Source of the DNA: Patescibacteria group bacterium | GTDB lineage: Bacteria > Patescibacteriota > Patescibacteriia > Patescibacteriales > UBA12465 | Assembly (NCBI GenBank): GCA_023229115.1 | Contig: JALNZW010000001.1 | Span: 134,861 to 198,860, forward strand | DNA length: 64,000 nucleotides | Direction of reading: 5' to 3' | Shown: positions 2,423-60,959 of the stretch, one piece after another | How positions within the stretch are numbered: position 1 is the first letter of the stretch | How the letters are laid out: each line of letters opens with the position of its first letter | Position numbers and translations under genes: made by a program | The notes under the pieces: model-generated | Databases searched by the model: none | What the model was told of the DNA's origin: nothing | What the model saw: the letters and a program-made list of their open reading frames with translations, nothing else

Positions 2423-2447
2423 AAGGGCCCTTAGGGGTCCTTTTTTT
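2423..2447 (+). terminator. Rho-independent terminator
   Basis: GGGCCC (2425-2430) pairs with GGGTCC (2435-2440) with one G-T pair and loop TTAG, followed by TTTTTTT. Confidence 0.65.
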
Positions 2448-2517
2448 GTATTAAAAAAATTTTGATTTCATTTTAAATTATGCTATTATATAGACATATT
2501 TATTCCTTTAATTAAGT

Positions 2518-4032
2518 ATGGACATAGTAATTGACTTTACTCCTATTCAAGATTTTTTTAGCTTGCCTCCAAACGAAATGTTGATCGTCTTTTTTTTGCG
2601 TTTTGGCTGGCTTATTTTTGCTATCATGTTTTTGGCTGCTGTTAGAGTTTTTTGGCTTAGTCATATTAGGGGAAAATGGTTTTCTGGGGTTAAGTTTATT
2701 TTTTTAGCCATAGACATTCCTCGGGGAAACGTTCAATCACCTCGGGCAGTTGAAAATATGTTTAGTTATCTAGCTGGAGCTCATGGTACTCAAAATTTTT
2801 TTGAAAAATGGTTTTTGGGGGAGTTTCAATTATCTTTTAGTTTGGAGATAATTAGTTCAGAGGGGTATACACAATTTTTAATAAGAACACCTAGTCAATT
2901 TAGAAATTTAGTTGAATCAGCTGTTTATTCTCAATATCCTGACGCTGAAATAGTGGAGGTTGATGATTATTGTGAAGGCTTCCCCCGAAAATTTCCCGAT
3001 GAAGAGTATGATGTTTGGGGAACTGAATTTGTTCCTGGTAACCACTACATGTATCCCATTAAAACCTATAAAGAATTTGAACATTTGCTGGGTCCAAGCG
3101 AGATAACTTTTAAAGATCCCATGGCTGAACTTATGGAGCTTTGTAGTAGTCTCAGAAGAGGTGAGCATTTTTGGTATCAGATAATTTTAATACCAACTGG
3201 CTTTGATTGGATAGATGATGGTGTTGGTGAAATTAACAAGATACTTGGAGAGGCCCCTAAGACTAGTTTTTTAAATAGAGTTATAGATTCATTATTAAAT
3301 TTACTTTCTGATTTGAGTGAGATGATTTTTTCTTTATGGGGAGATGTTGAAACTAAAGAAAAAGAATTTAAGAAATTGTCGATGATGGAGCTTACCCCTA
3401 AACAGAAAAAAAAGATAGAGGCCATAGAATACAAATCTTCTAAGCTTGGTTTTTTGTGTAAAATTAGGGTGGTTTATATGGCTAAAAAAGAAGTTATGAA
3501 TAAGGCTAAGGTGGCTAATGGTTTTGTTGGTTATTCCAAGCAATTTTCTTCCTTAGATTTAAATAATCTTAAGCCAGATTTAAAAATGACTGGAACTAAA
3601 GTTTCTTATTTTAATAAAGGACCTAGATTAATTAGAAAGAAAAATAATATAACCAATAATTATATCAATAGAGACGATTGGGCTGGTAGAGAACCATTTT
3701 TGTTAAATATTGAAGAGCTAGCTACTTTATGGCATTTTCCAATTGAAGCTACGGCTAATGCTCCGCTTATTCAAAAAACTCCGGCTAAAAAGTATAAGCC
3801 ACCAGCAAATTTAGTATCAGAAGATTCTTCCTCTAATTTAGGGCTTATTAAAGAAGAATTACTTTCTGGTGATTTTAGTAAAAAAAGAAAAAATAACGAG
3901 CAGACAGAAGCTTATAATAAAAAAAATGAAGAAGAAAGAGAACGAGAAAAAATAAAAGAAGAATTAGAAAAAGATTTAATTAAAGATTCTGGACATAAAG
4001 GATCACCTCCACCTAACTTACCTTTTGGATAA
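2518..4032 (+). CDS. Membrane protein, stand-alone paralog of the N-terminal module of the ATPase at 57616-60135 (no NTPase motifs)
   Basis: 504-aa ORF with an N-terminal TM segment (LIVFFLRFGWLIFAIMFLAAV). Blocks FSLEIISSEGYTQFLIRTP, YSQYPDAEIVEVDDY, LTPKQKKKIEAIEYKSSKLGFLCKIRVVY and FLLNIEELATLWHFPI align with FSFEIISNKNKISFYITAP, HAHYPEASVEEVEDY, LTEKEREMLKKMEEKNSKAGLDVNLRVVV and FLLNTEELVSMYHFPL of the 839-aa protein. The C-tail is charged and Pro-rich. Confidence 0.75.
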   Translation: MDIVIDFTPIQDFFSLPPNEMLIVFFLRFGWLIFAIMFLAAVRVFWLSHIRGKWFSGVKFIFLAIDIPRGNVQSPRAVENMFSYLAGAHGTQNFFEKWFLGEFQLSFSLEIISSEGYTQFLIRTPSQFRNLVESAVYSQYPDAEIVEVDDYCEGFPRKFPDEEYDVWGTEFVPGNHYMYPIKTYKEFEHLLGPSEITFKDPMAELMELCSSLRRGEHFWYQIILIPTGFDWIDDGVGEINKILGEAPKTSFLNRVIDSLLNLLSDLSEMIFSLWGDVETKEKEFKKLSMMELTPKQKKKIEAIEYKSSKLGFLCKIRVVYMAKKEVMNKAKVANGFVGYSKQFSSLDLNNLKPDLKMTGTKVSYFNKGPRLIRKKNNITNNYINRDDWAGREPFLLNIEELATLWHFPIEATANAPLIQKTPAKKYKPPANLVSEDSSSNLGLIKEELLSGDFSKKRKNNEQTEAYNKKNEEEREREKIKEELEKDLIKDSGHKGSPPPNLPFG

Positions 4033-5208
4033 ATGCAAGATAAAATAAAAAAAATTGGAATAGATGCTAGATTTTACGGCCCTTTTGCTAAGGGCCTTGG
4101 TCGTTATACTCAGGAAATAGTAGATAATATTTTAAAAATAGATACTGAAAATAATTATGTTATTTTTTTGGGTAAGCATAATTTTGATGAGTTAATTATT
4201 GATAAAAATAACAAGAGAGTTAAAAAGGTTTTAGTTGATATTAAATGGTATTCCTGGAAAGAGCAATTATTATTTCCTTTTTATATCTGGAAAGAAAAAC
4301 TTGATTTGATTCATTTTACTCATTTTAATGTTCCAATTTTTTGTCCTGTAAAATTTATTGTTACTATCCATGATTTGATTTTAACTAAGTTTAAAACAGT
4401 TAGAGCCACGACCAAACATCCTCTGATTTATAGCTTAAAAGATTTTTTTTATCGTGTAGTTATTAAAAGTGCTTTGAAAAAGTCTAAAAAGATATTGACT
4501 GTTTCTAATTTTACCAAAGATGATATTGTTCAGCAGTTTAAAATAAATCCAAAAAAAATTCAGGTTATTTATGAGGGGGTTTCTAATCTGTCTAAGGGAA
4601 GAGATTCTTTGTTTGTGGCTAAATTAAACAAAGAGGAGGTTTTGAGTGATTATAAGATATCATTTCCTTATTTTTTGTATGTTGGCAATGCTTATCCTCA
4701 TAAAAATTTGGAATTTTTAGTTGAATCTTTTTTAAAATGGAATTCAAAAGATAATAAATTTAGGTTGGTTATGGTTGGCAAGGAAGATTTTTTTTATAAA
4801 AGGACTAAAGAGTATGCATTTAATTTAATTAATAAAAATAATTATAATAATTCGATTATTTTTACTGGTTATGTACCGGATGATAAATTAGAGATAATCT
4901 ATCAAAGAGCAATGATTTATATATTTCCTTCTCTATACGAAGGTTTTGGCTTGCCGCCCTTAGAGGCTTTATTTAATTCTTGTCCAGTTTTGAGTTCAAG
5001 AGAAGCTAGTATGCCTGAAATAATTCAAAATGGAGCCTTGTATTTTGATCCTTATGATTATGAAGATTTTTATAATAAGTTGAATTTATTGGTTGATAAT
5101 GAAAAATTACGTCAAAATATTATTGAACAGGGCAAGGAAGTTTTAAAAAGATATAATTGGTGGGAATGTGCTTATCAAACTAGAGAAGCTTATTTCCAAA
5201 GTTTATAA
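4033..5208 (+). CDS. Family-4 (GT-B) glycosyltransferase
   Basis: 391-aa ORF. The motif PSLYEGFGLPPLEA (E-x7-E region) is typical of GT4/GT1 enzymes. The ATG follows the upstream stop codon directly. Confidence 0.8.
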   Translation: MQDKIKKIGIDARFYGPFAKGLGRYTQEIVDNILKIDTENNYVIFLGKHNFDELIIDKNNKRVKKVLVDIKWYSWKEQLLFPFYIWKEKLDLIHFTHFNVPIFCPVKFIVTIHDLILTKFKTVRATTKHPLIYSLKDFFYRVVIKSALKKSKKILTVSNFTKDDIVQQFKINPKKIQVIYEGVSNLSKGRDSLFVAKLNKEEVLSDYKISFPYFLYVGNAYPHKNLEFLVESFLKWNSKDNKFRLVMVGKEDFFYKRTKEYAFNLINKNNYNNSIIFTGYVPDDKLEIIYQRAMIYIFPSLYEGFGLPPLEALFNSCPVLSSREASMPEIIQNGALYFDPYDYEDFYNKLNLLVDNEKLRQNIIEQGKEVLKRYNWWECAYQTREAYFQSL

Positions 5209-5214
5209 AAGTTT

Positions 5215-8013
5215 ATGCCTCAGATAAAAAAACATAAAATAGAAATATTTAATAATGAACATTCTTCTGATTTTGTGGTTGATCTAAGAAAAGGGAAAAA
5301 AGAAATTATTAACGCCTCTTTATTTTCTGAAGAGAAGTCACTTAAGACGTCCGAAAAGAAGTTTGAGGAAAATAATATTGGAAATTCAGATCATAATCAT
5401 TTTTTTGATAATATTTCTATTAATAATAACTTTGTTAAAAAAGAAAAAAAAGCCGCTTTAAACCATAAGAGGATATTTAATAGAAAAAAATTCGAAAAAA
5501 CTCTTTTTTATCCTCTTTGGAAAATTATTTTTAATTTTTTTAAAAAAATATTTTATTTCTTTTATGATTGGTCGGTTGATATTTATCTTTTCTTTAAAAA
5601 AGTAAGATTATTTAGAAAATTTTTTAAATTTATATTCTATATTTTTTATCCTTTTTATTTTATTTTTAATAGGTTATATAAAATTTTTTCCAAAATAAGG
5701 GTTAGAAGAAAAATTAGAATTAATTTGCCAACAATCAAATTTAAAAGAAACAATAAAAAAAATATAGCCTTTAATTTTGATCAACCAAAGCAATTACTTC
5801 TTTTTAGTAGTCGTCCCAAAAGTGTTTTCAAATATTTGTTGTCTTTTTTTATTTTTTTATTATTTATAGTTCTTATTTTCAAATCAATTGATTACTATAA
5901 TCTTTATAAAAAAAGTAATTTACAGAATGATTTAATGTCCTTTTCTTTGGCTGGCGTGCAGAGTTTTTCTTCAGCTTCTGAGGCTGTTAGTCTTTTTGAT
6001 TTTTATCAAGCTTATAATAAATTTAATGAAGCTGGTGATAATTTTGAATCCTTAGATCGGGAATTGAAGAAGGTTGATGAGTTATTGCTTTTTTTTAGCT
6101 TTTTCTCCGAAGATCAAAAAATAAAGGCTTTTTCTCAATCTAAAAATTTTTCTAAGGTTGGTATTTATTTATCTTCTTTGGGAAATGATCTAAGTTTATC
6201 ATTTAATTCCTTGTTTTTGTTTTTCTCTGGAGAAAATTCTGAAAAGAATTTTGATGATTTTTCAGGCCATATTAAAGATTCTTTATTAGACTTAAAAACA
6301 GCTAATAAATATCTATCTAAAATAAAAACTGAAGCTATTCCAGTTGATTATCAGGAAAATTTTGACAAAACTAGAGATCAATTATTGTTGTTGGAGGATA
6401 ATTTAGAAATTTTTACTAAATATTTGCCAGCTATTAAAGATTTTTTGGGTATAAAACAAGATAAGCGGTATTTGTTGGTTTTTCAAAATAATTCAGAAAT
6501 AAGGGCGAGTGGTGGTTTTATTGGTAGCTATGCTTTAATTGATATTAAAAATGGAAAAATAATCAATATTGATATTCCCCCTGGTGGTTCCTATGATACG
6601 GAGGGTGGCATGCGAACCTCCGTTGAATCTCCCAAGCCTTTACATTTAGTGAAAAGCAAATGGTATTTCTGGGATGCTAATTGGTGGCCAGATTGGACTT
6701 TGTCAGCTAAAAATTTAATGTGGTTTTTGGAGAAAAGTAGTGGACCAAGCGTTGATGGTGTTATTAGTTTTACCCCAGATGTTCTTGGTGATTTACTGGA
6801 TATCTTTGGTTCAGTTGATTTATCTGAAAAATATGGAGTTATTATTGATTCTGATAATTTTCAAGATAATTTACAGGAAGTAGTTGAGGTTATTGGCAAC
6901 CCAGTCTTATATCAGGATCAGAATTTAAAAACTGATATTTTAAATAAAATTGATTATGGTGTAAAAAATTCTAGTACTTCACCCGAGGAATTATTAATTT
7001 TAAACTCAGAACTAGAGGGTTCTTTACAAGAATCTATAATCCAAGACAATTTAATAGACATTACTACTGCTACCACCACTGCTACTACTACAGAGAATTT
7101 ATTACCTCAAAACAGACCAAAAGAAATAATAGGTGACGTTTTCACTGTTTTACTAGAAAGAGTTATGACTGATATTGACATTGATAAAGTTTTAAAAATA
7201 TTTTTATCATTAATTGATAACTTGGATAGAAAAAATATTCTTGTTTATTTTGAAAACAATAAATTGCAAGAGATGATTGAATTTTATTCTTGGGCTGGTC
7301 GAATGAAGGAAGCTAAAAATGATTATTTAATGATTGTTGACTCTAATATTGCTGGTGCTAAAAGTGATAAATTTTTGCAAAAAAATTATTATTTAGAATC
7401 TCAAATACGGGAAGATGGTCGAATAATTAATAAATTAAGAATAGAGAGAGATCGTCGTGGGGAGCAGTATGAACTTTTTTCTGGCGTGAGAAATGTGAAT
7501 TGGTTGAGGGTTTATGTCCCTTTGGGCAGTAAGCTAATTAGTGCTAGTGGCTTTTCTCATCCTGACGAAGAATATTTTAAGAAAAATGAACAATATTTAG
7601 AAAAAAATAGTTTTTTAGAAAATACTGAAAATAAAGCTGAAATAGATTTAAAAAGTGGACTTAGAATATATCAAGAATCTGGTAAAACAGTTTTTGCTAA
7701 CTGGACAATGACCGATATTAATCAATTGTCAGTTATTGAGATAGAGTATGAATTACCGGGAAATATTTTTTTACAAAAAAATTCTTATTCTTTTTTGGAT
7801 AGATTTTTTTCTAATCAAGAATATTTCTTTAAACATTCTTTGTTGTGGCAAAAGCAAGCAGGTTCCGAAAATTCTAATTTTTATTTTTCACTGCAGAATA
7901 AATCATATTTTTCGCCAGCTTGGATTTCAGAAAAGATTGAAAAGGAAGATGATGTCTTAAAGAGGTCTGGTATATTAGATTTTGATAAATACTTTGCTAT
8001 TATTTTAAAATAA
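5215..8013 (+). CDS. DUF4012 domain membrane protein (long form)
   Basis: 932-aa ORF. NSEIRASGGFIGSYALIDIKNGKI and WYFWDANWWPDWT are the signature I associate with DUF4012. The N-terminal ~230 aa are extremely F/K/I-rich with a TM segment. Confidence 0.7.
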   Translation: MPQIKKHKIEIFNNEHSSDFVVDLRKGKKEIINASLFSEEKSLKTSEKKFEENNIGNSDHNHFFDNISINNNFVKKEKKAALNHKRIFNRKKFEKTLFYPLWKIIFNFFKKIFYFFYDWSVDIYLFFKKVRLFRKFFKFIFYIFYPFYFIFNRLYKIFSKIRVRRKIRINLPTIKFKRNNKKNIAFNFDQPKQLLLFSSRPKSVFKYLLSFFIFLLFIVLIFKSIDYYNLYKKSNLQNDLMSFSLAGVQSFSSASEAVSLFDFYQAYNKFNEAGDNFESLDRELKKVDELLLFFSFFSEDQKIKAFSQSKNFSKVGIYLSSLGNDLSLSFNSLFLFFSGENSEKNFDDFSGHIKDSLLDLKTANKYLSKIKTEAIPVDYQENFDKTRDQLLLLEDNLEIFTKYLPAIKDFLGIKQDKRYLLVFQNNSEIRASGGFIGSYALIDIKNGKIINIDIPPGGSYDTEGGMRTSVESPKPLHLVKSKWYFWDANWWPDWTLSAKNLMWFLEKSSGPSVDGVISFTPDVLGDLLDIFGSVDLSEKYGVIIDSDNFQDNLQEVVEVIGNPVLYQDQNLKTDILNKIDYGVKNSSTSPEELLILNSELEGSLQESIIQDNLIDITTATTTATTTENLLPQNRPKEIIGDVFTVLLERVMTDIDIDKVLKIFLSLIDNLDRKNILVYFENNKLQEMIEFYSWAGRMKEAKNDYLMIVDSNIAGAKSDKFLQKNYYLESQIREDGRIINKLRIERDRRGEQYELFSGVRNVNWLRVYVPLGSKLISASGFSHPDEEYFKKNEQYLEKNSFLENTENKAEIDLKSGLRIYQESGKTVFANWTMTDINQLSVIEIEYELPGNIFLQKNSYSFLDRFFSNQEYFFKHSLLWQKQAGSENSNFYFSLQNKSYFSPAWISEKIEKEDDVLKRSGILDFDKYFAIILK

Positions 8014-8026
8014 TTTATATAAATAT

Positions 8027-10003
8027 ATGAAAGAAGGAAAAGTAGAATTCAAAAAACATAAAATATCAGGGAATGATAATGTTTTAAATATTGAGAAAGA
8101 AATAAAAAAAGAAAAAAGAAATGAGGAAATGGATAATGATTTATTGGAAATTTATGCTGATGATGATGGTCAGATAAGCGATTTGAGTAAGATTAAGGTT
8201 AAAAAAAGAAGATCCTTTCTTGTTTCTTTGTTTTTTTCTTTATTGTCAATTGCGGTTGTTTCTTTTTTGGCTTATGGGGCTTATAATTATTTAAATAATC
8301 AAAAGGGGTCATCTTTTGTTTTGGATATCAAAATAAGTGCTCCTTCGAAGATAGTCTTGGGAGAGGCCTTTTTTTATGAAATCGAGTATAAAAATAATAG
8401 CAGTCATAGTTTAGAGGATATTAATTTAAATTTTAATTATCCCTCTAATTTTATTTATTTAGAATCTTATCCAAGTCCTAGTTTTAATAATAATTCTTGG
8501 AAAACTGATAATTTACTACCTGGAGCTAGTGGAAAAATAAAAATCAATGGTTTAATTATTAATAAGGAAGGTCTTAATAATCTTTTGTCGGTTGAGGCTG
8601 GTTATCAAATCTCTGGTTTTTCTTCTTATTTTAAAAAAGAGTTTTTTTATTCAGTTTCGGTTAGCTCTATTCCTTTTTCAATTAATTTAGATTTTTTTTC
8701 AACAGCTTTAGTGGGTGAGGAGTATCTTTTAAAATTTTCAATGAAGGATTTTAAGCCATTGCTTAAATCTGATATGTTTTTGTCAATTTTATCTTCTGAC
8801 AATATTCAATTTTATTTACCAGAAGAAGAATTTGGTGGTGATTCTGAAAAAATATTACAATTAGAACAATCAGATAAGAATATTTTTAAAATTTCCTTTA
8901 AAGATAATAATTCTTTGTCTGACTTTAATAATTTGTCATCCGATTCTTATGATTTTTATTTAAAGTATAAGGTCTTGGATAGAATTGACGATTTAGAAAA
9001 GGTTTCTTGGCAATTAAAGTATTCTGATGAATCTAATCCTAATTTAATTTTTTTAGAAAAAGAATTCTCTCTTTCAGTTATTAAAAGTGATCTTCATTTA
9101 AATCTAACCATTAATGAAAATTCGTCAGACCAGTCTGTTAATTTTGGTCAAACATTGAACTATGTTATTAATTATGCCAATAAAGGTGATAAGAAGATGA
9201 AAGACTTGATAATAATGGCTGTTTTGGAGAGTGATTTTTTGGATTGGGAAAGCTTTACTGACATAAAAGGTGGTAGAGTAAATAGAGGAACCATAAGTTG
9301 GACGTCTCAGGAAATATCTGAATTAAAAGAGCTTGATCCAGGTCAGGAAGGTTTTATTAATTTTTCAATTAATGTAGCTCCTTTTGTAGATGTTTCTTAT
9401 GGTCAAGAATTAAAATTAGAAAGTTATGCTCAATTTACAATTGGTAATGTAGAAGAATTGGGAGAAGATAAATTTCGAGTATCTGACAACAAAAGCAACG
9501 CTATATTGAGTCCAATTAACAGTAATTTTTTTGCTAAAGAAGAATTGAGATACTTTGATGATAATAATATTCCTGTTGGTTCTGGTCCATTACCTCCCAA
9601 GGTTGGGGAGAAGTCTACTTTTAGAGTTTATTGGACAATTAAAAATTCCTTACATGAATTAAAGGATTTGCAAGCTGAATTATATTTACCAGAATATATT
9701 ATTTGGGAGAATAAATATGATATTAGTGCGGGTGAAATTTATTATGATTTAACTGAAAATAAAGTTCTTTGGAGTTTGGGTCGTTTACCCTTAGGAATTG
9801 ATGAAATAAAAATTAGTTTTGATATTGCCATAGCTCCTAGCGATTTTGAATATAATAAGATTATTATTTTATCACCTGGTAGTAGCTTTAAAGCTTTTGA
9901 TGTAGAAACTAGTTCTTGGATTGATAAAAAAACAGAAATAAAAACAACTAAGTTAGAGGATGATCCAATCGCTGGCCTTAGTAGTGATGGAAGAATAAAA
10001 TAA
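8027..10003 (+). CDS. N-terminally anchored large surface protein with repeated beta-sandwich (DUF11/CARDB-like) segments
   Basis: 658-aa ORF with one TM segment (FLVSLFFSLLSIAVVSFLAYGAY). It has recurring patterns such as FYEIEYKNNS..L.D..L and LNYVINYANKGDKKMKDLII. The family call is tentative. Confidence 0.45.
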   Translation: MKEGKVEFKKHKISGNDNVLNIEKEIKKEKRNEEMDNDLLEIYADDDGQISDLSKIKVKKRRSFLVSLFFSLLSIAVVSFLAYGAYNYLNNQKGSSFVLDIKISAPSKIVLGEAFFYEIEYKNNSSHSLEDINLNFNYPSNFIYLESYPSPSFNNNSWKTDNLLPGASGKIKINGLIINKEGLNNLLSVEAGYQISGFSSYFKKEFFYSVSVSSIPFSINLDFFSTALVGEEYLLKFSMKDFKPLLKSDMFLSILSSDNIQFYLPEEEFGGDSEKILQLEQSDKNIFKISFKDNNSLSDFNNLSSDSYDFYLKYKVLDRIDDLEKVSWQLKYSDESNPNLIFLEKEFSLSVIKSDLHLNLTINENSSDQSVNFGQTLNYVINYANKGDKKMKDLIIMAVLESDFLDWESFTDIKGGRVNRGTISWTSQEISELKELDPGQEGFINFSINVAPFVDVSYGQELKLESYAQFTIGNVEELGEDKFRVSDNKSNAILSPINSNFFAKEELRYFDDNNIPVGSGPLPPKVGEKSTFRVYWTIKNSLHELKDLQAELYLPEYIIWENKYDISAGEIYYDLTENKVLWSLGRLPLGIDEIKISFDIAIAPSDFEYNKIIILSPGSSFKAFDVETSSWIDKKTEIKTTKLEDDPIAGLSSDGRIK

Positions 10004-14195: not shown

Positions 14196-15698
14196 ATGAA
14201 AAAAATAAAAAAAAATAAAAATAATTATTATATAAAATCTTTCGTTTTTCTTTTCTTGTTCTTTGTTTCAATTTTCTTTTTTTCTGAAGTTGAGGCTTCT
14301 AGCTTAACTTCTCGTCTGTCAGGTAGAATTTTGTTGCAAGTAGAAAGCAAGGGCGAGGCTTATTATGTTAATCCAGGAGATTTAAAAAAATATTATTTAG
14401 GAAGACCTGATGATGCTTTTGTTATTATGCGTTCTTTTGGTTTGGGGGCAACTAATATTGATATTAATAATTTTCTAAAGAATGGAGCTAGGGCTAATTT
14501 ATCTGGCAAGATACTTCTTCAGGTTCAAGATAAAGGTCAGGCTTATTATGTAAATCCTTTAAATTTACGTCTTTATTATTTGGGTCGACCAGCGGATGCC
14601 TTTGCTGTTATGAGACAATTGGGCTTAGGAATTAAAAACTCTGACCTAGATCAAATTGTTTCAGGTGTTTTAGGAGTAAGTAGCAGCGGCAATTCTGGAA
14701 CAACAGTTAATCCTGGTGAAAAATTAGTTTTATTCAGTTGGAAATATAAAAATAAACAGTATTCCTTGGAACAAGTTTTTTCTGATAGTCTTTATAATTC
14801 TTATAAAAATTCTGATAAGAATTATTATTATCCAGCTAATAATCCCCCAGAGAATTTAAGAGAGGCATATTACAGTATATTTTTAACTCAAAAAAGTGGT
14901 GATAATTCTATTGATAATTTAATAGCTGATTTAAGAAAAATTGCGAATCAAGAAGGGTTTAGTGATGATCAATTTGTGGAATTTGTTATGGCTCTAGTTC
15001 AGTATTTGCCTTATGATTTTTCTAAAAAATCGACTGACCCACAAAATTTTCCTTATGAAACATTATATACTGGAACTGGTATTTGTTCGGATACAACATT
15101 TTTGTCTGTTTTAATATTAAGAAAATTGGGTTACGGAGCAGCTGTCTTTGATTATCCTAATGTTAAACATTCGGCCGCAGCTGTCGCTTGCTCTCAAAAT
15201 TCTTCTTATAATTCTGGTTATTGTTTTGTAGAAACAACCAATTATTTTCCAATAGGAGTTTTCCCATCAAGCATTGGAACTGGACAAGCGGAAGGCTCTG
15301 GAACTAATTGGAACACTCTTTTCAGTGGGACTAGTTTGGGCGAGGTTGAGATTTTGCAAAAAAGTGGCGGTAAATATTATGGAGGCATGTCCAATACTAT
15401 CAATACTGTAAATTCAATAGTAAAAATGCAGCAGAATTTAATTGAAAAGGGGAGCGAACTTAAATCCCTACAAGATCAATTAAGTCAAGTAAAGTCTCAA
15501 TTAGATCAAATATCAGCTCAAGCTGAAGTTTATAAGCAGGCCAGTGACTGGACTAATTATAATTTAAAAGTTGAAGAATATAATCTTAAGGTTAATGAAT
15601 ATAATGCAATTTTGAATAATTATCGTTTAAAATTAGATGTTTATAATTTTGATGTAGTGTTATTTAATCAAACTGTTAAGGATTTTTATCAGAATTAA
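14196..15698 (+). CDS. Secreted protein: two tandem ~61-aa repeats, a transglutaminase-like Cys core and a C-terminal coiled coil
   Basis: Signal or anchor segment FVFLFLFFVSIFFFSEVEA. The repeats are LSGRILLQVESKGEAYYVNP..YYLGRPDDAFVIMRSFGLG and LSGKILLQVQDKGQAYYVNP..YYLGRPADAFAVMRQLGLG. GTGICSDTTFLSVLILRKLGYGAAV resembles a transglutaminase-like core. The Q/L/N heptad-like tail suggests a coiled coil. Confidence 0.5.
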   Translation: MKKIKKNKNNYYIKSFVFLFLFFVSIFFFSEVEASSLTSRLSGRILLQVESKGEAYYVNPGDLKKYYLGRPDDAFVIMRSFGLGATNIDINNFLKNGARANLSGKILLQVQDKGQAYYVNPLNLRLYYLGRPADAFAVMRQLGLGIKNSDLDQIVSGVLGVSSSGNSGTTVNPGEKLVLFSWKYKNKQYSLEQVFSDSLYNSYKNSDKNYYYPANNPPENLREAYYSIFLTQKSGDNSIDNLIADLRKIANQEGFSDDQFVEFVMALVQYLPYDFSKKSTDPQNFPYETLYTGTGICSDTTFLSVLILRKLGYGAAVFDYPNVKHSAAAVACSQNSSYNSGYCFVETTNYFPIGVFPSSIGTGQAEGSGTNWNTLFSGTSLGEVEILQKSGGKYYGGMSNTINTVNSIVKMQQNLIEKGSELKSLQDQLSQVKSQLDQISAQAEVYKQASDWTNYNLKVEEYNLKVNEYNAILNNYRLKLDVYNFDVVLFNQTVKDFYQN

Positions 15699-20527: not shown

Positions 20528-21586
20528 ATGGCCAATCTTTTAGATAAAATTAAGAAAGTTGAATTGGTTGGTCGTGGAGGGGCTTCTTTTCCTGTTTATT
20601 TAAAATGGAAAACTGTTAAAAGTGAAAAAAGTTTAGAAAAATATTTAGTGATAAATGGAGCAGAAGGTGAGCCTGGTATATATAAGGATGCCTATATAAT
20701 AAATAATTATCCAGAAGAGTTAATGGGTGGGGTAAAGATTGCATCTGATTTTATTAAAGCTAAAAAGATTTATTTTTATTTAAACAAAAGTCTTTATGAC
20801 TCAAAAAATAAATTAAATAGAATAGCTAATTCTGTTGGTTTGAAGGGTGAGATTATTTTTTTTCTAAAGCCGGTAGATTCTGGTTATATTGCCGGAGAAG
20901 AATCTACTATTTTAAATATTATAGAAGGAAAAAATATTGAATCTCGTCTTAGACCACCATTTCCGGCTTGTAGCGGTCTTTTTGGCATGCCGACTTTAAT
21001 TAATAATATTGAAACTATTTATAATGTTTATTTGGTAGGTAAAAATAAATATCAAAATAAGAGATTTTATTCTATTAATTTTAATAAAAAAAATAAAGGA
21101 GTTTATTTTTTGTCAGAAAATTTGAGTATTAAACAAGTTTTGAAAGAAACTAAAAACTATCCTGATTATAATTTCTTTGTTCAAATTGGCGGAGATGCTT
21201 CGGGTGAGGTTTTAAACAGTAATCAATTAAATAAAAAAGTCGATGGAGCTGGATCTATCACTATTTACAACTTAGAAAAACATCAGCCAGAAAAATTATT
21301 AAAGTATTGGTTGAATTTTTTTAGAGATAATTCTTGTGGTAAATGTACTCCTTGTCGTGAAGGAACATATCGTCTTTGTGAGATGTTTGACAACTTTTCT
21401 TTAGATATGAGAAAAGAAAAAGATTTTTCTGATTTATGTGATAATTTGTTTTTGTCATCATTTTGTGCCCTAGGAACATCAGCTCCAATAGCTGTTCTTA
21501 GTTATTTTAAAAATGTTTACGAACCTTTAATTGTTTCTCAAAAAAATTTAAAGGTCTTGAAAAAAAATGTCAAAAGAAAAAAATAA
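20528..21586 (+). CDS. NuoF/HydB-like NADH-binding flavoprotein subunit (short form)
   Basis: GRGGASFPVYLKW, NGAEGEPGIYKD, YIAGEESTILNIIEG, RPPFPACSGLFGMPTLINNIET and SCGKCTPCREG...FCALG match the 51-kDa NuoF signatures. At 352 aa it has no extra ferredoxin domains. Confidence 0.85.
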   Translation: MANLLDKIKKVELVGRGGASFPVYLKWKTVKSEKSLEKYLVINGAEGEPGIYKDAYIINNYPEELMGGVKIASDFIKAKKIYFYLNKSLYDSKNKLNRIANSVGLKGEIIFFLKPVDSGYIAGEESTILNIIEGKNIESRLRPPFPACSGLFGMPTLINNIETIYNVYLVGKNKYQNKRFYSINFNKKNKGVYFLSENLSIKQVLKETKNYPDYNFFVQIGGDASGEVLNSNQLNKKVDGAGSITIYNLEKHQPEKLLKYWLNFFRDNSCGKCTPCREGTYRLCEMFDNFSLDMRKEKDFSDLCDNLFLSSFCALGTSAPIAVLSYFKNVYEPLIVSQKNLKVLKKNVKRKK

Positions 21587-23297
21587 GGAAATTAGGATAA
21601 AAATAGACGGTAAATCATACAAATGTGTGTCAGGAGAAAAAATATTAGACGTAGCTAAAAGAAATAATATTTTCATTCCATCTCTTTGTCATCACTCTGA
21701 TTTAGATATTAAGGCTAATTGTCGTGTTTGTGTGGTTGAAATTAAGGGTTATAATCGTTTGATGACTTCTTGTTCAACTATTGCTTGTGATGGAATGGAA
21801 GTTTTTACCAATTCTCCTAAAGTTAAATTATCGAGAGATACTAATTTAAAATTAATATTTTCAACTCATATTGAAAAATGCTCTGATTGTAGCTCTAGGT
21901 TTAATTGTGACTTACTTTCTTTGGCTAGGAGGTATGGTTTGAATATTGCCAATTTTAAAGATCGTAAAAGTAAAAGAAAAACATATAAATTTTCTAATTC
22001 AGTTGAAATTGATGGTAGTCAGTGTATAGATTGTCAAAATTGTGTTGATGTTTGTTCTAATGTTCAGAAAATAAATTATTTAAAAAAAACAGGGAAGGGG
22101 TATAAGCAAGAAATAGTTCCAACTGAAGATGAAAATATTGAATGCATTTATTGTGGACAATGTACATTACATTGTCCAGTAGCTTCAGCTCAAGAACAAT
22201 ATAATTGGGACGAAGTTGAGAATATTTTAGCCAATAAAAAAGGAAAAAAACTTATAGCAATGATTGCTCCGTCTACCAGAATTTCAATTGGAGAAATGTT
22301 TGGCTTTCCTTATGGTTATAACGCTGCTGATCAAATGGTAGGCGCTTTAAAAAAACTTGGCTTTGATGAAGTTGTTGATGTTAATTTTGGGGCTGATGTA
22401 ACAACCCTAGTTGAAGCTGAAGAACTTTTAGAAAGATTGTCCGATAAAAAAGCTAAATTACCGATGATTACTTCTTGTTGTCCGGCTTGGGTAAAATATT
22501 TAGAATTTTATCGACCAGACTTAATACCACATTTAACAAGTTCTAGATCTCCTCAAATTCATTTAGGTGGAATTATAAAGACTTATTGGGCGCAAAAAAA
22601 GAATATTAAGCCAAAAGATATTGTAACTGTTTCAATAATGCCTTGCACGGCTAAAAAATTTGAATCTCGAAGACCAGAATTAAAGATTAATGGACTTTAT
22701 CCAATAGATGAAGTGATGACCGTTAGGGAATTGGCTTTTTTAATAAAAAAGAATGGAATTGATTTTAAAAATCTTAAAAAGGTAAAATCTAACGATTTAT
22801 TTAATGATGGTAGTGGAGCAGCTGTTATTTATGGAGCTTCTGGGGGCGTAATGGAATCAGCCCTAAGAACCGCTAGTCATATAATCTGTAAAGGTTCGAA
22901 TAAAGCTAAGATTTGCCATTCTAGGCTTGAATTTAAAGAAGTTAGGGGATTAAAGGGTGTTAAGGAGGTAAGCATTAATTTGGACGGAAACAAGCTTAAT
23001 ATAGCTGTGGTCAATGGTATTGGTAATATAAAGGAAGTTTTGTCAAAATTAAAAAAATATCATTATATAGAAGTTATGGCTTGTCCCGGTGGTTGTATTG
23101 GTGGTGGTGGTCAAATTATACCAAGTTCAATGGATATAGTTCAAAAGAGAATGGAAGGGCTGTATAGTAGTGATAAAAAAGAGAAAGTAAGAACCGCTCA
23201 TGATAATCAAGTCGCAGTTGAAGCATTTAACTGGATAAAAAGCAATAAATTATCTCACAAAGTTCTACATACTAAATACGTGAGTAGAAAAAAATAA
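21567..23297 (+). CDS. [FeFe]-hydrogenase catalytic subunit (group A type)
   Basis: N-terminal 2Fe-2S-like fold, CxxCxxCxxxC ferredoxin motifs, and H-cluster motifs TSCCPAW, MPCTAKKFE and MACPGGCIGGGGQ. It overlaps the NuoF-like gene by 20 nt. Confidence 0.92.
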   Translation: MSKEKNKEIRIKIDGKSYKCVSGEKILDVAKRNNIFIPSLCHHSDLDIKANCRVCVVEIKGYNRLMTSCSTIACDGMEVFTNSPKVKLSRDTNLKLIFSTHIEKCSDCSSRFNCDLLSLARRYGLNIANFKDRKSKRKTYKFSNSVEIDGSQCIDCQNCVDVCSNVQKINYLKKTGKGYKQEIVPTEDENIECIYCGQCTLHCPVASAQEQYNWDEVENILANKKGKKLIAMIAPSTRISIGEMFGFPYGYNAADQMVGALKKLGFDEVVDVNFGADVTTLVEAEELLERLSDKKAKLPMITSCCPAWVKYLEFYRPDLIPHLTSSRSPQIHLGGIIKTYWAQKKNIKPKDIVTVSIMPCTAKKFESRRPELKINGLYPIDEVMTVRELAFLIKKNGIDFKNLKKVKSNDLFNDGSGAAVIYGASGGVMESALRTASHIICKGSNKAKICHSRLEFKEVRGLKGVKEVSINLDGNKLNIAVVNGIGNIKEVLSKLKKYHYIEVMACPGGCIGGGGQIIPSSMDIVQKRMEGLYSSDKKEKVRTAHDNQVAVEAFNWIKSNKLSHKVLHTKYVSRKK

Positions 23298-27656: not shown

Positions 27657-27727
27657 TTAATTATAACTAGATATCAGTTTTTACTACTTAGAACGTGCGA
27701 TAACTGGTATAACAAGTTAAATAAAAT

Positions 27728-28429: not shown

Positions 28430-28433
28430 ATAT

Positions 28434-57111: not shown

Positions 57112-57612
57112 ATGGCTGAAGATTTAATCAAGAAAATAGAACGAGAAGTAAATAGGGGCGACAAAGAATCTTTTGATTCCCAAGAAAAAAGAAGTGAAGA
57201 TCAAGAGTCTTTTGATATTGGTTTTGAACAAAATGAAAACCTAGCAGAAAGATCAATCGAAGATAAGGAGGAGTTTACAAAACCAGGGGAAGGTTTTTCT
57301 TCGGGATCAGCTCCGGCGACTGTTGTAAGTAGTGAAAAAAATGAAAGAGAAGTTAAAATAGAAGAAATATTATCAGTTGGTCTGGATGATATTTTTTTAA
57401 ATTTATCACCCCAGAAACAAAAAGAATTTAAAATTGAAGGAGAAAAAGCTGTCTCTAAAATTAACGTTTTACTTGATAAAGCTAAAATTAATGTAGAAAA
57501 AGTTATTAATATTATAAAAAAATGGTTATCAATAATTCCTAAGGTTAATAAGTTCTTTTTGGAGCAAGAAGCTAAGATAAAAGCTGATCAAATAATAAAA
57601 TTGAAAAAATAA
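57112..57612 (+). CDS. Acidic/coiled-coil hypothetical protein preceding the ATPase
   Basis: It begins MAEDLIKKIEREV. The E/D/S/K-rich N-half is likely disordered and the C-half is amphipathic. I prefer ATG 57112, because the track start 57046 would overlap the ferredoxin by 62 nt. Confidence 0.6.
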   Translation: MAEDLIKKIEREVNRGDKESFDSQEKRSEDQESFDIGFEQNENLAERSIEDKEEFTKPGEGFSSGSAPATVVSSEKNEREVKIEEILSVGLDDIFLNLSPQKQKEFKIEGEKAVSKINVLLDKAKINVEKVINIIKKWLSIIPKVNKFFLEQEAKIKADQIIKLKK

Positions 57613-57615: not shown

Positions 57616-60135
57616 ATGAATAATATTCAAAGCATTGATTTGGAGACAATTGAATCTTCTGGTTTTTTTTCTTCAGACTATTTCTATTTAGCACTTTTTT
57701 TTATAAGTGTTTTTTTGCTTTTTTTATTAATTCGTTTTTTTGTTAGATATTATAGTGTTAGGGGTAAAAATTCTAATCAAGCTATTTTTTTAGTCAGACT
57801 TCCTAAGGAGAAGCCAAAGGATCAAGACAAGGGAGAAAGTTTACAACAATTGCAAGAAGAAATAGCTAAGGGTGAAACTGTTTTCGCTAGTATTGGTGGC
57901 TTAAGAGCTCAAAGAGGCTTGGCTGCCTGGTTTTTTGGTCGTACTGATAATTTTTCTTTTGAAATTATTTCTAATAAAAATAAAATATCTTTTTATATTA
58001 CAGCCCCCAAAGAAAAAGCCTTATATATAGAGCAACAAATTCACGCTCACTACCCAGAGGCTTCAGTGGAAGAAGTTGAAGATTACAATATTTTTAATCC
58101 TCAAGGATATATTCTAGCTGGTTATTTACAAGCTAAAAGAAGTTTTATTTTTCCTTTTTTAGATTATAGCGAGATGGATTCTGACCCTATGAATTCGTTG
58201 ATTAATGTTATGTCTAAGCTTGAATCGGATGAAAGTATTGCTGTTCAATATGTAGTTAGAAGCGCCAAAAAAGGTTGGCACGCCAAAATTAAAGAATCGG
58301 TGCTTAAGGCTTATAAAAGCCAGGATGTTAGTGAGATATTTAGAATTAGTAGTAATTCTTTTTATAATGCTATTAATTTTTTTATTTATGATATTTTATT
58401 GGGCATGTTTGATATGGGTCGACCAGAAAAAAAAGAAAGTGATAATGGCAATAAAAAAGAGTTGACGGAAAAGGAAAGAGAAATGCTTAAAAAAATGGAA
58501 GAAAAGAATTCTAAGGCTGGCTTGGATGTAAATTTGAGAGTAGTTGTTAGCGCTAAAACAAAAGAAAAAACTCAAACGTATTTTGAAAATATTTCTAATG
58601 CTTTTAGTGAATATAATTATTATGAGTATGGTAATGCTTTTAAAAAAGTGGCTAAAGGTAATCAAGAAGATATAATCAATGATTTTATTTATAGACATTT
58701 TATTGATAGTCAAAGCTTCTTGTTGAACACCGAGGAACTAGTGTCTATGTATCATTTTCCTTTATCTCACACAGAAACACCCAATATTGATTGGTTGACA
58801 TCTAAAACAGCAGCAGCTCCTAGTAACTTACCCAAAGAAGGTGTTCTTTTAGGGTTTAATCTGTTTAGAGGTATTAAAACCGATGTCAGAATTAAAAAAA
58901 TTGACCGTCGTCGTCATATGTATATTATTGGTAAATCAGGAACTGGTAAATCTGTTTTGCTTAATAATTTGGCTATTCAGGATATACAAAATGGTGATGG
59001 TGTTTGTGTTATGGACCCTAATGGTGATTTGATTGAAGATATTTTAAATAGGATTCCGCCTGAAAGAGCAGAAGATGTTATAGTTTTTTCTCCCTCAGAC
59101 ACTGAAAGACCTCTTGGTTTGAACTTATTAGAGTATGATGAAAGATACCCAGAACAGAAAACTTTTGTTATCAATGAAATGATTGGTATCTTTGATAAAT
59201 TATATGATTTAAAAGCAACTGGTGGTCCAATGTTTGAGCAATACATGAGAAATGCTTTACTTTTAATTATGGATAGTCCAGAAACTGGCTCAACCTTAAT
59301 GGAAATTTCAAAAGTTTTGGCTGATGAAGATTTTAGAAGAATGAAACTTAGAATGTGCAAAAATCAAACAGTAGTTGATTTTTGGCAGAAAGAAGCTGAA
59401 AAAGCCGGAGGTGAGGCGGCATTAGCTAATATGGTGCCTTATATAACCTCTAAATTGACCCCCTTTGTCTCCAATGACATGATGATGCCAATTATAGGCC
59501 AACAAAAAAGCGCTTTTAATTTTAGAGATTTAATGGATAGTCGTAAGATATTAATGGTTGATCTTCCTAAAGGTGCTATTGGAGAAACTAATGCTTATTT
59601 ATTAGGTATGATTATTGTTGGCAAGATATTGATGGCAGCTCTTTCTAGAACTGATATGCCAGCCGAGGACAGAAAAGACTTTTATTTATATATTGATGAG
59701 TTTCAAAACTTTACAACCAATTCTATTTGTCAAATATTGTCTGAAGCTAGAAAATACGCCTTATGCCTTAATATAGCTCATCAGTATATCGGTCAGCTTA
59801 GTAAAAATCAAGATTCTCAAATTAAGGATGCTGTTTTTGGTAACGTTGGAACTATGGTTAGTTTTAAGGTGGGGTCAGAGGATGCTGACTTTTTAGTTAA
59901 AGAGTTTGGACCAGTTTTTAACGAATATGATTTGGTTAATATTGGTCGAGGTGGTTTTGCTAAGCTATTAGTCGATGGTCAAGGGACTAGGCCATTTTCT
60001 TTGCAAACTATTTGGCCTTTAATGGGTGATTTTAGACAAGGAATGTCGCAAAATGTTAGACAGCTTAGTCGTTATAAATACGGACAAGATAGAAATATAA
60101 TTTTAAGAGACATTGCTAATCGTCGAATTGATTAA
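57616..60135 (+). CDS. Membrane-anchored FtsK/HerA-superfamily ATPase, TraD/VirD4 (type IV coupling protein)-like, with a distinctive N-terminal module
   Basis: TM segment YFYLALFFISVFLLFLLIRFFV. Walker A is YIIGKSGTGKSVLL and Walker B is FYLYIDEFQNF. ARKYALCLNIAHQYIGQL is typical of TraD/TrwB-type proteins. The N-terminal 400 aa are homologous to the 2518-4032 protein. Confidence 0.8.
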   Translation: MNNIQSIDLETIESSGFFSSDYFYLALFFISVFLLFLLIRFFVRYYSVRGKNSNQAIFLVRLPKEKPKDQDKGESLQQLQEEIAKGETVFASIGGLRAQRGLAAWFFGRTDNFSFEIISNKNKISFYITAPKEKALYIEQQIHAHYPEASVEEVEDYNIFNPQGYILAGYLQAKRSFIFPFLDYSEMDSDPMNSLINVMSKLESDESIAVQYVVRSAKKGWHAKIKESVLKAYKSQDVSEIFRISSNSFYNAINFFIYDILLGMFDMGRPEKKESDNGNKKELTEKEREMLKKMEEKNSKAGLDVNLRVVVSAKTKEKTQTYFENISNAFSEYNYYEYGNAFKKVAKGNQEDIINDFIYRHFIDSQSFLLNTEELVSMYHFPLSHTETPNIDWLTSKTAAAPSNLPKEGVLLGFNLFRGIKTDVRIKKIDRRRHMYIIGKSGTGKSVLLNNLAIQDIQNGDGVCVMDPNGDLIEDILNRIPPERAEDVIVFSPSDTERPLGLNLLEYDERYPEQKTFVINEMIGIFDKLYDLKATGGPMFEQYMRNALLLIMDSPETGSTLMEISKVLADEDFRRMKLRMCKNQTVVDFWQKEAEKAGGEAALANMVPYITSKLTPFVSNDMMMPIIGQQKSAFNFRDLMDSRKILMVDLPKGAIGETNAYLLGMIIVGKILMAALSRTDMPAEDRKDFYLYIDEFQNFTTNSICQILSEARKYALCLNIAHQYIGQLSKNQDSQIKDAVFGNVGTMVSFKVGSEDADFLVKEFGPVFNEYDLVNIGRGGFAKLLVDGQGTRPFSLQTIWPLMGDFRQGMSQNVRQLSRYKYGQDRNIILRDIANRRID

Positions 60136-60137: not shown

Positions 60138-60959
60138 ATGAGCATTTTTTTTCAAATAAAAGCATTGATATTGGGCATGGTCCAGGGCTTTACTGAGTTT
60201 TTACCAATATCTTCAACCGCCCATCTTTTAATATTTGCTAAAATTCTAAAATTAGAGCTTAGTGATTTTATCAAAAGCTTTATTATTATAATTCAATTTG
60301 CTTCTATTTTGGCTGTTGTTTTTTTGTATTGGAAAAAAATAATTGATAATTTTTTTACCTACTTTAAAAAATTAGTTATAGCTTTTATTCCGACAGCTAT
60401 CTTGGGCTTAATTTTTTATAAAATAGTAAAAAATTTCTTACAAGAAAGTTTTTTAATTATCTCTTTATCCCTATTTTTAGGCGGAGTATTAATGATAATT
60501 CTAGAAAATTATTATTATCAAAAAAAGCAGAAGACGTCTGTTGAAAATAAAAAAGATTCAATGCTTGACCCGATAAAGGAAATAAGTTATAAAAAATGTT
60601 TTTATATTGGCTTATTTCAAGCTATAGCCATGATCCCAGGAGTTTCTAGATCAGCAGCCACTATTTTTGGTGGACTTTTTCTAGGTATTAGTCGTAAGGC
60701 TATTGTTGAATTTTCTTTTTTATTAGCGATTCCAACCATGGCGGCTGCCACTGGTTTAGATTTAATAAAAACAGGTTTAAGTTTTCAAAAAAATGAAGTT
60801 GTATTTTTAATTATTGGTTTTTTAACTTCTTTTATTGTTGCCATGTTTTCTATTAAATTTTTATTAAAATTTATTAAAAAAAGTGATTTTAAACCTTTTG
60901 CTTGGTACAGGATAATTATTGGTTTATTGACTTTTTTATTCTTTTTGTTTAAGCTATAG
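60138..60959 (+). CDS. uppP: Undecaprenyl-diphosphate phosphatase
   Basis: GMVQGFTEFLPISSTAHL and PGVSRSAATI motifs; 8 TM. It starts 2 nt after the ATPase stop. Confidence 0.92.
   Translation: MSIFFQIKALILGMVQGFTEFLPISSTAHLLIFAKILKLELSDFIKSFIIIIQFASILAVVFLYWKKIIDNFFTYFKKLVIAFIPTAILGLIFYKIVKNFLQESFLIISLSLFLGGVLMIILENYYYQKKQKTSVENKKDSMLDPIKEISYKKCFYIGLFQAIAMIPGVSRSAATIFGGLFLGISRKAIVEFSFLLAIPTMAAATGLDLIKTGLSFQKNEVVFLIIGFLTSFIVAMFSIKFLLKFIKKSDFKPFAWYRIIIGLLTFLFFLFKL

Follow-up and report, generated by a model that had tools for sequence, protein, structure and literature searches.

A stand-alone DUF8128 protein of Patescibacteria as the probable membrane anchor of a coupling-protein-type ATPase

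The subject of this report is a gene for a protein of 504 amino acids (aa), hereafter the stand-alone DUF8128 protein, located in a 64,000-nucleotide stretch of DNA (the window; positions 134,861 to 198,860 of contig JALNZW010000001.1, assembly GCA_023229115.1) from a member of the Patescibacteria, or candidate phyla radiation (CPR). The protein is the split-gene counterpart of the N-terminal half of a coupling-type ATPase, a fused form of which (839 aa) is encoded in the same window, and it is normally encoded together with an ATPase that has no anchor of its own. We consider it likely, with a probability of about 0.7, that the protein serves as the membrane-anchor or adaptor subunit of a coupling-protein-type hexameric ATPase of the FtsK/HerA superfamily, and not as a protein of a glycan pathway.

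The stand-alone protein corresponds to the N-terminal half of a coupling-type ATPase

An initial annotation of the window had described the 504-aa protein as a stand-alone copy of the N-terminal region of the 839-aa ATPase. This description holds well, as both open reading frames (ORFs) are as stated and a pairwise BLASTP comparison aligns residues 79-435 of the shorter protein with residues 87-408 of the longer one (25% identity over 362 columns, 86 bits, E 8e-22), with all four motif pairs quoted at the time falling within the alignment. Neither a Walker A nor a Walker B motif was found in the sequence of the 504-aa protein, again as first noted, and it thus lacks the nucleoside triphosphatase (NTPase) domain expected of a coupling protein, which the 839-aa protein possesses. 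The term 'membrane module' was nevertheless too strong for the shared region: the two regions are paralogous, but a hydropathy scan finds one hydrophobic helix per protein (at about residues 20-50; 17-48 in the 839-aa protein), the rest being a globular alpha/beta domain.

The homologue P0001, 96% identical to the 504-aa protein over its full length, has a precomputed match to Pfam PF26449.1, as do nearly all of the best 120 homologues. This family is labelled DUF8128 in gene tables, and in homologues of the 839-aa protein PF26449 lies ahead of TrwB_AAD_bind, T4SS-DNA_transf and TraG-D_C. The 504-aa protein itself gave no match against NCBIfam, PDB sequences or a Pfam release predating PF26449; judged by sequence, it is a DUF8128 member by proxy, through the PF26449 matches of its close homologues. 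Because stand-alone and fused homologues both carry PF26449, their paralogy is already recorded in Pfam, as a domain of unknown function; the family unites the stand-alone protein and the ATPase N-region, and no fold, partner or role was found attached to it.

In a joint alignment, about 35 positions are at least 80% conserved and occupied by the same residue in the stand-alone and fused families. They include, in 504-aa/839-aa numbering, E110/E116, D150-Y151/D156-Y157, D200-P201/D190-P191, R385/R360, E399-E400-L401/E373-E374-L375, H406/H380 and P408/P382, and the molecular task of the two forms is evidently the same. The stand-alone protein has 1,435 relatives in a large protein collection, the best 120 of which are 52-96% identical to it and all come from metagenome-assembled genomes of Patescibacteria, and an exhaustive search of 1.84 billion cluster representatives returned 1,697 at E<=1e-3 and 565 at E<=1e-30. 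The best 150 representatives are all devoid of the ATPase (143 are 410-690 aa long, seven 279-396 aa) and are conserved over query residues 1-435. Across 78 diverse stand-alone members, 12 positions are invariant, including E110, D150-Y151, D200, R317, R385, E400, P408 and P429 in 504-aa numbering, and a further 27 are nearly so.

The half of the machine that is absent from these proteins is encoded next to them in many genomes. At three loci (L028, L057 and L073), the stand-alone DUF8128 gene is followed by a gene for a 586-597-aa ATPase, here called B, that matches residues 408-829 of the 839-aa protein with about 44% identity and carries TrwB_AAD_bind, TraG-D_C and a C-terminal treble-clef zinc finger (zf_Tbcl_2; CxxC-x17-CxxC). 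B starts exactly where the DUF8128 part of the fused protein ends, just past the P-x-x-L-P element. B is a member of a sizeable and strongly conserved family of Patescibacteria; its best 120 relatives are 65-100% identical to it (65-83% without the self-match) and none contains PF26449, and all three B genes looked up on long contigs have a 515-519-aa DUF8128 gene directly upstream in otherwise differing surroundings.

The generality of this arrangement was apparent from a diverse sample, obtained by searching metagenome contigs with an alignment of diverse family members headed by a distant one, which comprised 80 loci 32-60% identical to that distant member, with 79 usable for the analysis of neighbours and 69 having a downstream gene. 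The gene directly 3' of the stand-alone DUF8128 gene is B at 48 of the 69 loci (51 if small spurious ORFs are skipped), after a gap with a median of 8-30 nt, a GT4 glycosyltransferase at five, and UppP and TerC at one each. From three genes upstream to four genes downstream, B is present at 51 of the 79 loci, a protein combining sigma-70 region 4 with a HARE-HTH domain at 35, SecD/SecF at 29, MurB at eight, GT4 at six, UppP at five, and ComEC and DUF4012 at three each. The B proteins have a Walker A motif in 39 of 39 cases, the zinc-finger motif in 30 and a hydrophobic helix in one; the stand-alone members from the metagenome loci have a transmembrane (TM) helix in 70 of 78 cases and Walker A in none. 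The two proteins are complementary, each supplying the part that the other is missing, and since B lacks the N-domain, starts at the boundary of the fused ATPase and adjoins the stand-alone gene, the stand-alone protein and B together represent the split form of the 839-aa protein. One locus of the family (L091) has two B-like ORFs (616 and 472 aa) in tandem past a single stand-alone DUF8128 gene (8001-9695).

A single clade has a glycosyltransferase gene in place of B

The closer surroundings of the window's gene were studied in a sample with one genome per species, in which 387 close relatives were found and the best 80 (51-96% identical) were examined. GT4 lies directly 3' of DUF8128 in 64 of these 80 species, at a median gap of about 1 nt, with TerC inserted between the two genes at seven further loci and UppP at five; L028, L057 and L073, which also belong to this sample, have B instead of GT4. 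The order GT2, sigma-70 region 4/HARE-HTH, DUF8128, GT4, DUF4012, DUF11, TGT is kept in essentially all clade loci that are long enough. The record titles of loci L006-L085 name many an 'uncultured Gammaproteobacteria bacterium', and in one case a 'Bacillota bacterium', for this Patescibacteria block, and these are apparently mislabels.

We inferred a neighbour-joining tree of 158 stand-alone domains, rooted by six fused N-domains. A single clade holds all the proteins of the GT4, TerC and UppP types (69, eight and five, respectively, plus one at a contig end) and no B-type protein, and it sits 12 nodes within a ladder-like series of B-type lineages, with L028, L057 and L073 in its sister group. 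Because the GT4-type clade is monophyletic and nested among B-type lineages, the abutment with GT4 represents one derived event rather than 64 independent confirmations. In the window's clade, B is no longer next to the stand-alone gene, and GT4-DUF4012-DUF11 has taken its place.

Of 56 positions that are at least 90% conserved in B-type proteins, 49 are still at least 90% conserved in the GT4-type clade and the other seven keep the same majority residue at 77-90%, so that, at the level of sequence, there is no relaxation of constraint. The retention of the family-defining residues and of the C-terminal peptide described below suggests that the ATPase partner is probably still used; in the window's genome it could be a B protein encoded elsewhere or the 839-aa paralogue. 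A fused ATPase gene and a stand-alone gene that has no B beside it occur 5 kb apart in the metagenomic locus L125.

Domain anatomy and a candidate docking peptide

The stand-alone protein would consist of a short acidic extracellular tail, one TM helix, a cytoplasmic DUF8128 domain of about 370 aa, a disordered tether and a terminal PxNLPF peptide (table 1). The acidic N-terminal tail and the basic residues past the helix point to an orientation with the N-terminus outside and the C-terminus inside, and the shared domain is accordingly predicted to be cytoplasmic. The first linker-like element of the 504-aa protein, PPANLV, corresponds to 402-PSNLP-406 of the fused ATPase. Beyond it, the AlphaFold2 (AF2) model has a predicted local distance difference test score (pLDDT) below 50 over residues 419-469, and the tails of relatives are 40-250 aa long. 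Despite this variability, the tail ends in P-x-[NSGD]-[LIVM]-P in 217 of 251 stand-alone members (60 of 78 in the metagenome loci); the 504-aa protein terminates in SPPPNLPFG, and within the window's clade the motif shows conservation of 90% or more. We infer from these sequences that the PxNLPF end may be a tethered docking peptide for the ATPase, mimicking the covalent linker of the fused form.

Patescibacteria possess two paralogous forms of the module, a fused one, with a PSNLP linker leading to the ATPase, and a split one, with the stand-alone gene directly 5' of the gene for the soluble B. In the mechanism we propose, the stand-alone protein would recruit the soluble ATPase to the membrane, perhaps via the C-terminal peptide that imitates the covalent linker. 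In the inner-membrane complexes of type IV secretion systems (T4SS), as seen in the R388 structures, the VirB4 N-domain provides the anchorage and organisation of the ATPase hexamer on the cytoplasmic side. By analogy, the stand-alone protein would do the same for its own ATPase hexamer, and the resulting assembly of VirB4-like architecture would translocate a substrate at the cytoplasmic membrane. Our best guess for this substrate is DNA, in view of family precedent, the zinc finger of B, the neighbouring protein with two helix-turn-helix (HTH) domains and the occasional adjacency of ComEC.

Fold and relation to known systems

The AF2 monomer model of the 504-aa protein (pLDDT 74.7, predicted template-modelling score 0.69) shows a long TM helix, two alpha/beta sub-domains and a disordered tail. 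When it was searched with Foldseek, the top 12 PDB matches were all TrwK/VirB4 of R388 (E 9e-4 to 3e-2, probability up to 0.99). The model of the 839-aa protein likewise retrieves TrwK first (up to 830 columns, E 1.3e-7), followed by TrwB/VirD4 (about 290 columns, E 2.5e-4), with DotL behind. Weak matches in these Foldseek searches to the ESX-3 translocon (chain 6umm_A), PII-like proteins and BBE-like oxidases (E 0.03-1) were set aside as sub-domain noise. By sequence, the ATPase half of this protein sides with the coupling proteins: it matches TrwB_AAD_bind with 35.8 bits (cut-off 20.5) and also TraG-D_C, its sole sequence relative in PDB is TrwB (E 1.5e-6), its NCBIfam matches are TraD models, and against TIGR00929 it scores 17.5 bits against a cut-off of 643, over the P-loop only. 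The overall picture is one of a VirB4-like architecture on a VirD4-like motor, and from the structural models we regard DUF8128 as probably related to the VirB4 N-domain.

Several observations weigh against our interpretation. The likeness to VirB4 is a fold-level one, with TM-scores of about 0.3 and the aligned residues not displayed, and in the 839-aa model the N-domain is good and the ATPase half poor (pLDDT 64.5). Comparison by hhalign gave a probability of 0.2% for the family against R388 TrwK and of 0.5%, over 12 columns, for the family alignment against pSK41 TrsD; a Pfam scan of 78 family members found no CagE_TrbE_VirB even at E<=10, and the family profile gave no signal against all PDB sequences. 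Since all these searches were negative, the relation to VirB4 is drawn from Foldseek, and sequence-level kinship to VirB4 or TrsD was rejected. The 64-kb window contains no B gene, and the tight, clade-wide coupling to GT4 could mean that the stand-alone protein has changed its role there. The neighbour-joining tree has no bootstrap support, yet the pattern read from it is independent of fine topology.

With VirB4 (TrwK of R388; PDB 7O42, 7O43, 8RTB, 8RTD), the DUF8128 systems appear to share the succession of a non-ATPase N-domain of about 400 aa and an FtsK/HerA-type ATPase at the cytoplasmic face of the membrane, and VirB4 is the best Foldseek match of both the stand-alone and the fused model. 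They differ in that the ATPase half of the fused protein is closer by sequence to VirD4/TraD, that DUF8128 proteins have a TM helix of their own, that no T4SS genes were detected among the 58 window ORFs scanned against Pfam and that the N-domain has no profile similarity to that of VirB4.

In classical coupling proteins, a pair of N-terminal TM helices forms the anchor and a cytoplasmic N-domain of about 350 aa is absent. The ATPases of the 839-aa protein and B resemble those of the coupling proteins (VirD4/TrwB/TraD/TraG; DotL) in having TrwB_AAD_bind, TraG-D_C and the Walker A and B motifs; however, the DUF8128 systems combine one TM helix with DUF8128, fused or separately encoded, and B adds the C-terminal zinc finger. 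In the 839-aa protein there is no two-helix anchor directly before the NTPase, a globular domain of about 350 aa being interposed between the single helix and the NTPase, and no linkage to relaxase or T4SS genes was detected among the window ORFs scanned or at the loci looked up for this ATPase.

A parallel in gene organisation is TrsD (TraD-TrsE of the staphylococcal plasmids pGO1/pSK41), a small protein remotely related to the VirB4 N-terminus and encoded by a separate gene immediately 5' of an ATPase gene (in pSK41, TrsD at 25886-26569, then the ATPase at 26584-28602). A position directly upstream of the cognate ATPase gene is not seen in the window, but it is seen at 48 of the 69 diverse loci of relatives. 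TrsD is, however, only 227 aa long compared with about 500 aa, shows no detectable similarity to DUF8128 (hhalign 0.5%), belongs to a conjugation operon and has a VirB4-type partner, whereas the partner of DUF8128 is of the coupling type. DUF8128 proteins thus probably work like, and are probably related to, ATPases of the VirB4/VirD4 class without belonging to any of the named families, because the 504-aa protein has no NTPase, the 839-aa protein has neither the two-helix anchor nor T4SS linkage, and neither protein matches VirB4 or TrsD by sequence.

Some of these genes have been counted before. According to Quinonero-Coronel et al. 2025 (PMC12102498), 2,918 Patescibacteria genomes contain 5,713 VirD4-type homologues, about two per genome, only 148 of which lie near virB4; exaptation was suggested there and the role was left open. 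These orphan t4cp homologues are almost certainly the same genes as those for the 839-aa protein and B; the DUF8128 N-domain, the stand-alone paralogue and the relation between the split and fused forms do not appear in the part of that account available to us. A full-text literature search for 'DUF8128' returned no paper, and no literature linking the VirB4 N-domain, TrsD and DUF8128 proteins was found. The orphan coupling-protein homologues are therefore on record already, and we did not find a description of the VirB4-like fold of DUF8128, its stand-alone partner or the duality of fused and split forms.

We would tentatively go one step further and propose, as a possibility more than an expectation, that DUF8128 and its coupling-type ATPase constitute an undescribed, phylum-wide membrane translocase of Patescibacteria, present as two ancient paralogous systems, independent of T4SS and perhaps powering a central element of the CPR lifestyle. 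If this is true, the combination of a VirB4-like N-domain and a VirD4-like motor may be an intermediate that has survived between the two families of T4SS ATPases, and the machine could be the missing cytoplasmic motor for DNA uptake through ComEC or serve an export step linked to the envelope or to division, the latter fitting the repeated occurrence of SecDF, the dcw cluster and UppP next to it. In the membrane-anchor interpretation favoured here, the two orphan homologues per genome are the fused and the split version of one machine, and the soluble version of the ATPase has a dedicated membrane partner, the 504-aa family, with a domain resembling the VirB4 N-domain. The question of what the orphan coupling-protein homologues do becomes testable in this framework.

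Alternative interpretations

The alternative that fares best concerns the substrate: the pairs of DUF8128 and coupling-type ATPase may be DNA translocases proper, either the motor of ComEC-mediated DNA uptake or an FtsK-like pump linked to the divisome. We rate this as conceivable, though short of an even chance. The ATPase domain matches the DNA-pumping coupling proteins TrwB, TraD and TraG, most B proteins (30 of 39) have the C-terminal zinc finger, the two-HTH protein is the commonest upstream neighbour, and in several genomes the module stands at the end of the dcw cluster. VirB4-type architecture, on the other hand, is tied to assembly and protein dislocation and not to DNA pumping, which speaks against this idea. 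ComEC (Competence plus DUF4131) lies directly past the stand-alone gene in L153 (2997-4493) and L169, both without an adjacent B, and just upstream of it in L112, but with three of 79 loci, or about two independent events, such adjacency is rare, and no DNA-processing genes (relaxase, DprA) lie nearby. TM7x is annotated with an ftsK gene, so a substitute for FtsK is not obviously needed. The core com genes of CPR bacteria are ComEC, DprA and ComFC, with no ComFA-type motor in the description (PMC10633639). In Southlakia the com genes are non-essential and so, according to PMC12102498, is the t4cp homologue; this parallel is suggestive only.

The initial annotation itself favoured another idea, namely that both copies of the DUF8128 module function in the export or assembly of surface glycans or proteins together with GT4, DUF4012, the DUF11 protein and the UppP cycle. 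The facts it was built on are correct for the window: the stop codon of the 504-aa protein at 4030-4032 abuts the GT4 start codon at 4033, with DUF4012 and then the DUF11 protein downstream, and uppP starts at 60138, 2 nt past the stop codon of the ATPase gene. The close abutment with GT4 recurs, as noted above, in 64 of 80 related species. A promoter-like site 5' of DUF8128, with only weak hairpins before a terminator-like site past TGT, suggests a single transcript; the sole terminator-like sites before that one are two weak hairpins (stems of 5-6 bp with three G-C pairs) at 4927-4943 in GT4 and 5972-5986 in DUF4012. UppP stands between DUF8128 and GT4 in five species, directly past the stand-alone gene in L149, directly past B in L093, L097 and L100, and past the fused ATPase in the window, so that a gene expected in a single copy is found next to this system in at least four distinct arrangements. 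SecD-SecF is located upstream at 29 of 79 loci, with MurB, Mur ligases and FtsI upstream at others, and a second DUF4012-Wzy-GT4-GT4 cluster is located 2-12 kb upstream of the fused ATPase.

The neighbourhood survey nevertheless shows that the linkage is not conserved across lineages. The association with GT4, DUF4012 and DUF11 reflects one event in one clade, and GT4 (six), DUF4012 (three) and UppP (five) are infrequent neighbours at the 79 diverse loci. The operon also includes TGT and then CysS, which speaks for general synteny of a gene-dense genome and against a functional unit. Once identity drops to 71% or less, uppP is no longer adjacent to the fused ATPase, three of the four other genomes looked up having no uppP beside this gene. 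The domain is, moreover, predicted to be cytoplasmic, its sole relatives by fold or fusion are FtsK/HerA-type motors, and no glycan-export family was detected. The statement that both copies sit beside envelope-glycan genes is hence true of the window and fails as a general property, and the surface-export interpretation largely falls with it. We consider such a role unlikely, keeping an envelope-related function as a minority rival to the membrane-anchor interpretation in view of the recurrent uppP and SecDF, cell-wall and division neighbours. A more general caution is that in gene-dense CPR genomes tight abutment, here with GT4, can be an accident of a single clade without any functional link.

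It is also improbable that the DUF8128 proteins are dispersed parts of a canonical T4SS of Patescibacteria, with the 839-aa protein as its coupling protein and the 504-aa protein as a TrsD-like accessory of VirB4. This possibility is brought up by the NCBI name of homologues ('type IV secretion system DNA-binding domain-containing protein') and by TrsD, a stand-alone, remote relative of the VirB4 N-terminus encoded just 5' of its ATPase in pSK41. However, a Pfam scan of 58 window ORFs (57 of them at least 160 aa long; ten ORFs of at least 100 aa, 102-134 aa in length, were left out) revealed no VirB4, VirB6, VirB8, pilin or relaxase family, and neither VirB4, VirB6, VirB8 nor a relaxase is listed among the genes at the loci examined for the fused ATPase. 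The hhalign probability of the family against TrsD is 0.5%, and the conserved partner of the stand-alone protein is a coupling-type ATPase and not VirB4. According to PMC12102498, coupling-protein genes are often far from virB4, which would allow for dispersal, but only 148 of the 5,713 homologues lie near it, and Southlakia can do without the homologue but not without its T4SS. Finally, the gene might be taken for a decaying, functionless remnant of a duplicated ATPase gene, given that the ATPase half is missing and that the window's clade has no adjacent ATPase, but pseudogene status is effectively refuted by the 1,697 and 565 cluster representatives at E<=1e-3 and E<=1e-30, the identity of at least 52% among the 120 best homologues, the intactness of the gene at every locus of sufficient length, the 12 invariant and 27 nearly invariant positions in 78 diverse members and the family-defining residues kept in the clade.

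Genomic surroundings of the two genes

Table 1. Coordinates in the window of the two DUF8128 genes, their parts and their neighbours.
Feature	Position	Strand	Basis or remark
Sigma-70 region 4 + RNAP-delta-like HARE-HTH protein, 341 aa	1383..2408	+	Pfam, NCBIfam
Terminator-like hairpin	2423-2442	+	consensus scan only
TG-extended promoter-like site, 5' of the DUF8128 ATG	2462-2489	+	consensus scan only
Stand-alone DUF8128 gene, 504 aa	2518..4032	+	ORF; gene under study
Single N-terminal TM helix (about aa 21-46)	2578..2655	+	hydropathy scan
DUF8128 core domain (about aa 57-435), predicted cytoplasmic, VirB4-N-terminal-domain-like fold	2686..3822	+	conservation, Foldseek
First 'PPxxLP' linker motif, PPANLV (aa 428-433), just past the domain	3799..3816	+	
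Disordered, charged, length-variable tail (aa 436-496)	3823..4005	+	
C-terminal PPPNLPF motif (aa 497-503), putative docking peptide	4006..4026	+	
GT4	4033-5208	+	clade-specific neighbour, outside the deeply conserved module
DUF4012	5215-8013	+	clade-specific neighbour
DUF11/CLIPPER surface protein	8027-10003	+	clade-specific neighbour
L27	56454-56726	-	start of conserved block
Small 4Fe-4S ferredoxin, 65 aa	56910..57107	+	member of conserved block
Small acidic protein (about 166 aa)	57112..57612	+	always directly 5' of fused ATPase
Fused paralogue 'A', 839 aa: TM helix + DUF8128 (aa ~50-408) + coupling-protein-like ATPase (aa ~409-839)	57616..60135	+	
Walker A GKSGTGKS (aa 439-446), fused ATPase	58930..58953	+	
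Walker B YLYIDE (aa 690-695), fused ATPase	59683..59700	+	
BacA/UppP, 2 nt past fused ATPase	60138..60959	+	

The 341-aa protein encoded upstream of the stand-alone gene contains sigma-70 region 4 at aa 31-82 and HARE-HTH at aa 278-341 (TIGR04567, E 8e-9) and lacks sigma region 2. No other gene is found upstream of stand-alone DUF8128 genes as often as this one, which occurs there at 35 of the 79 diverse loci and at nearly all clade loci. The succession of a hairpin and a promoter-like site in 2423..2489 suggests, from the consensus scan only, that DUF8128 heads its own transcript. The SecD-SecF pair mentioned above lies within three genes upstream of the stand-alone gene at its 29 diverse loci, and in the SecD of L092 (4930-6993) a PPIC-type peptidyl-prolyl isomerase domain (Rotamase) is inserted at aa 275-370.

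The fused ATPase terminates a conserved block, L27 (on the minus strand), ferredoxin, small acidic protein and ATPase, which was found in the window and at five of five loci looked up (one of them, L172, being the window's own genome). The pair of small protein and ATPase occurs also in L125. The small acidic protein is 156-188 aa long, has a conserved C-terminal helical half with an invariant 'FFLEQEAKIK', is 40-52% identical among the window, L003, L004 and L125, and matches no family in Pfam or NCBIfam. The window's own genome is the only one with uppP directly 3' of the fused ATPase; uppP is two genes off in L170 (ATPase 78% identical) and absent from this place in three others (63-71% identity), and the loci without uppP beside the ATPase have dnaX or pilin-like Fib_succ_major genes instead. 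At two loci, L003 (9588-11877) and L170 (8611-9696), the place that uppP takes in the window, directly 3' of the fused ATPase, is filled by type-IV-pilin-like genes (N_methyl and/or Fib_succ_major).

The upstream Wzy-GT4-GT4 block is common to L003, L170 and L172 and absent from L004 and L171. In the window it forms part of a cluster (45570-56335) encoding DUF4012, Wzy_C, two GT4 proteins, GHL15, a 456-aa protein of unknown function, a Wzz-like protein of 267 aa and an unknown 307-aa protein, which stops just short of the fused ATPase block. The two DUF4012 paralogues of the window (5215-8013 and 45570-47540) are 26% identical (E 1e-34), and each lies beside GT4 genes. Elsewhere in the window, ORFs of 689 aa (42715-44784, minus strand), 456 aa (53116-54486, plus strand) and 500 aa (14196-15698, plus strand) have no match in Pfam at the thresholds applied, the region 38390-39925 encodes a GH3-family (acyl-acid amido synthetase-like) protein, and a NuoF-like flavoprotein and a [FeFe]-hydrogenase large subunit are encoded at 20528-23297 in this otherwise minimal genome of 29% GC.

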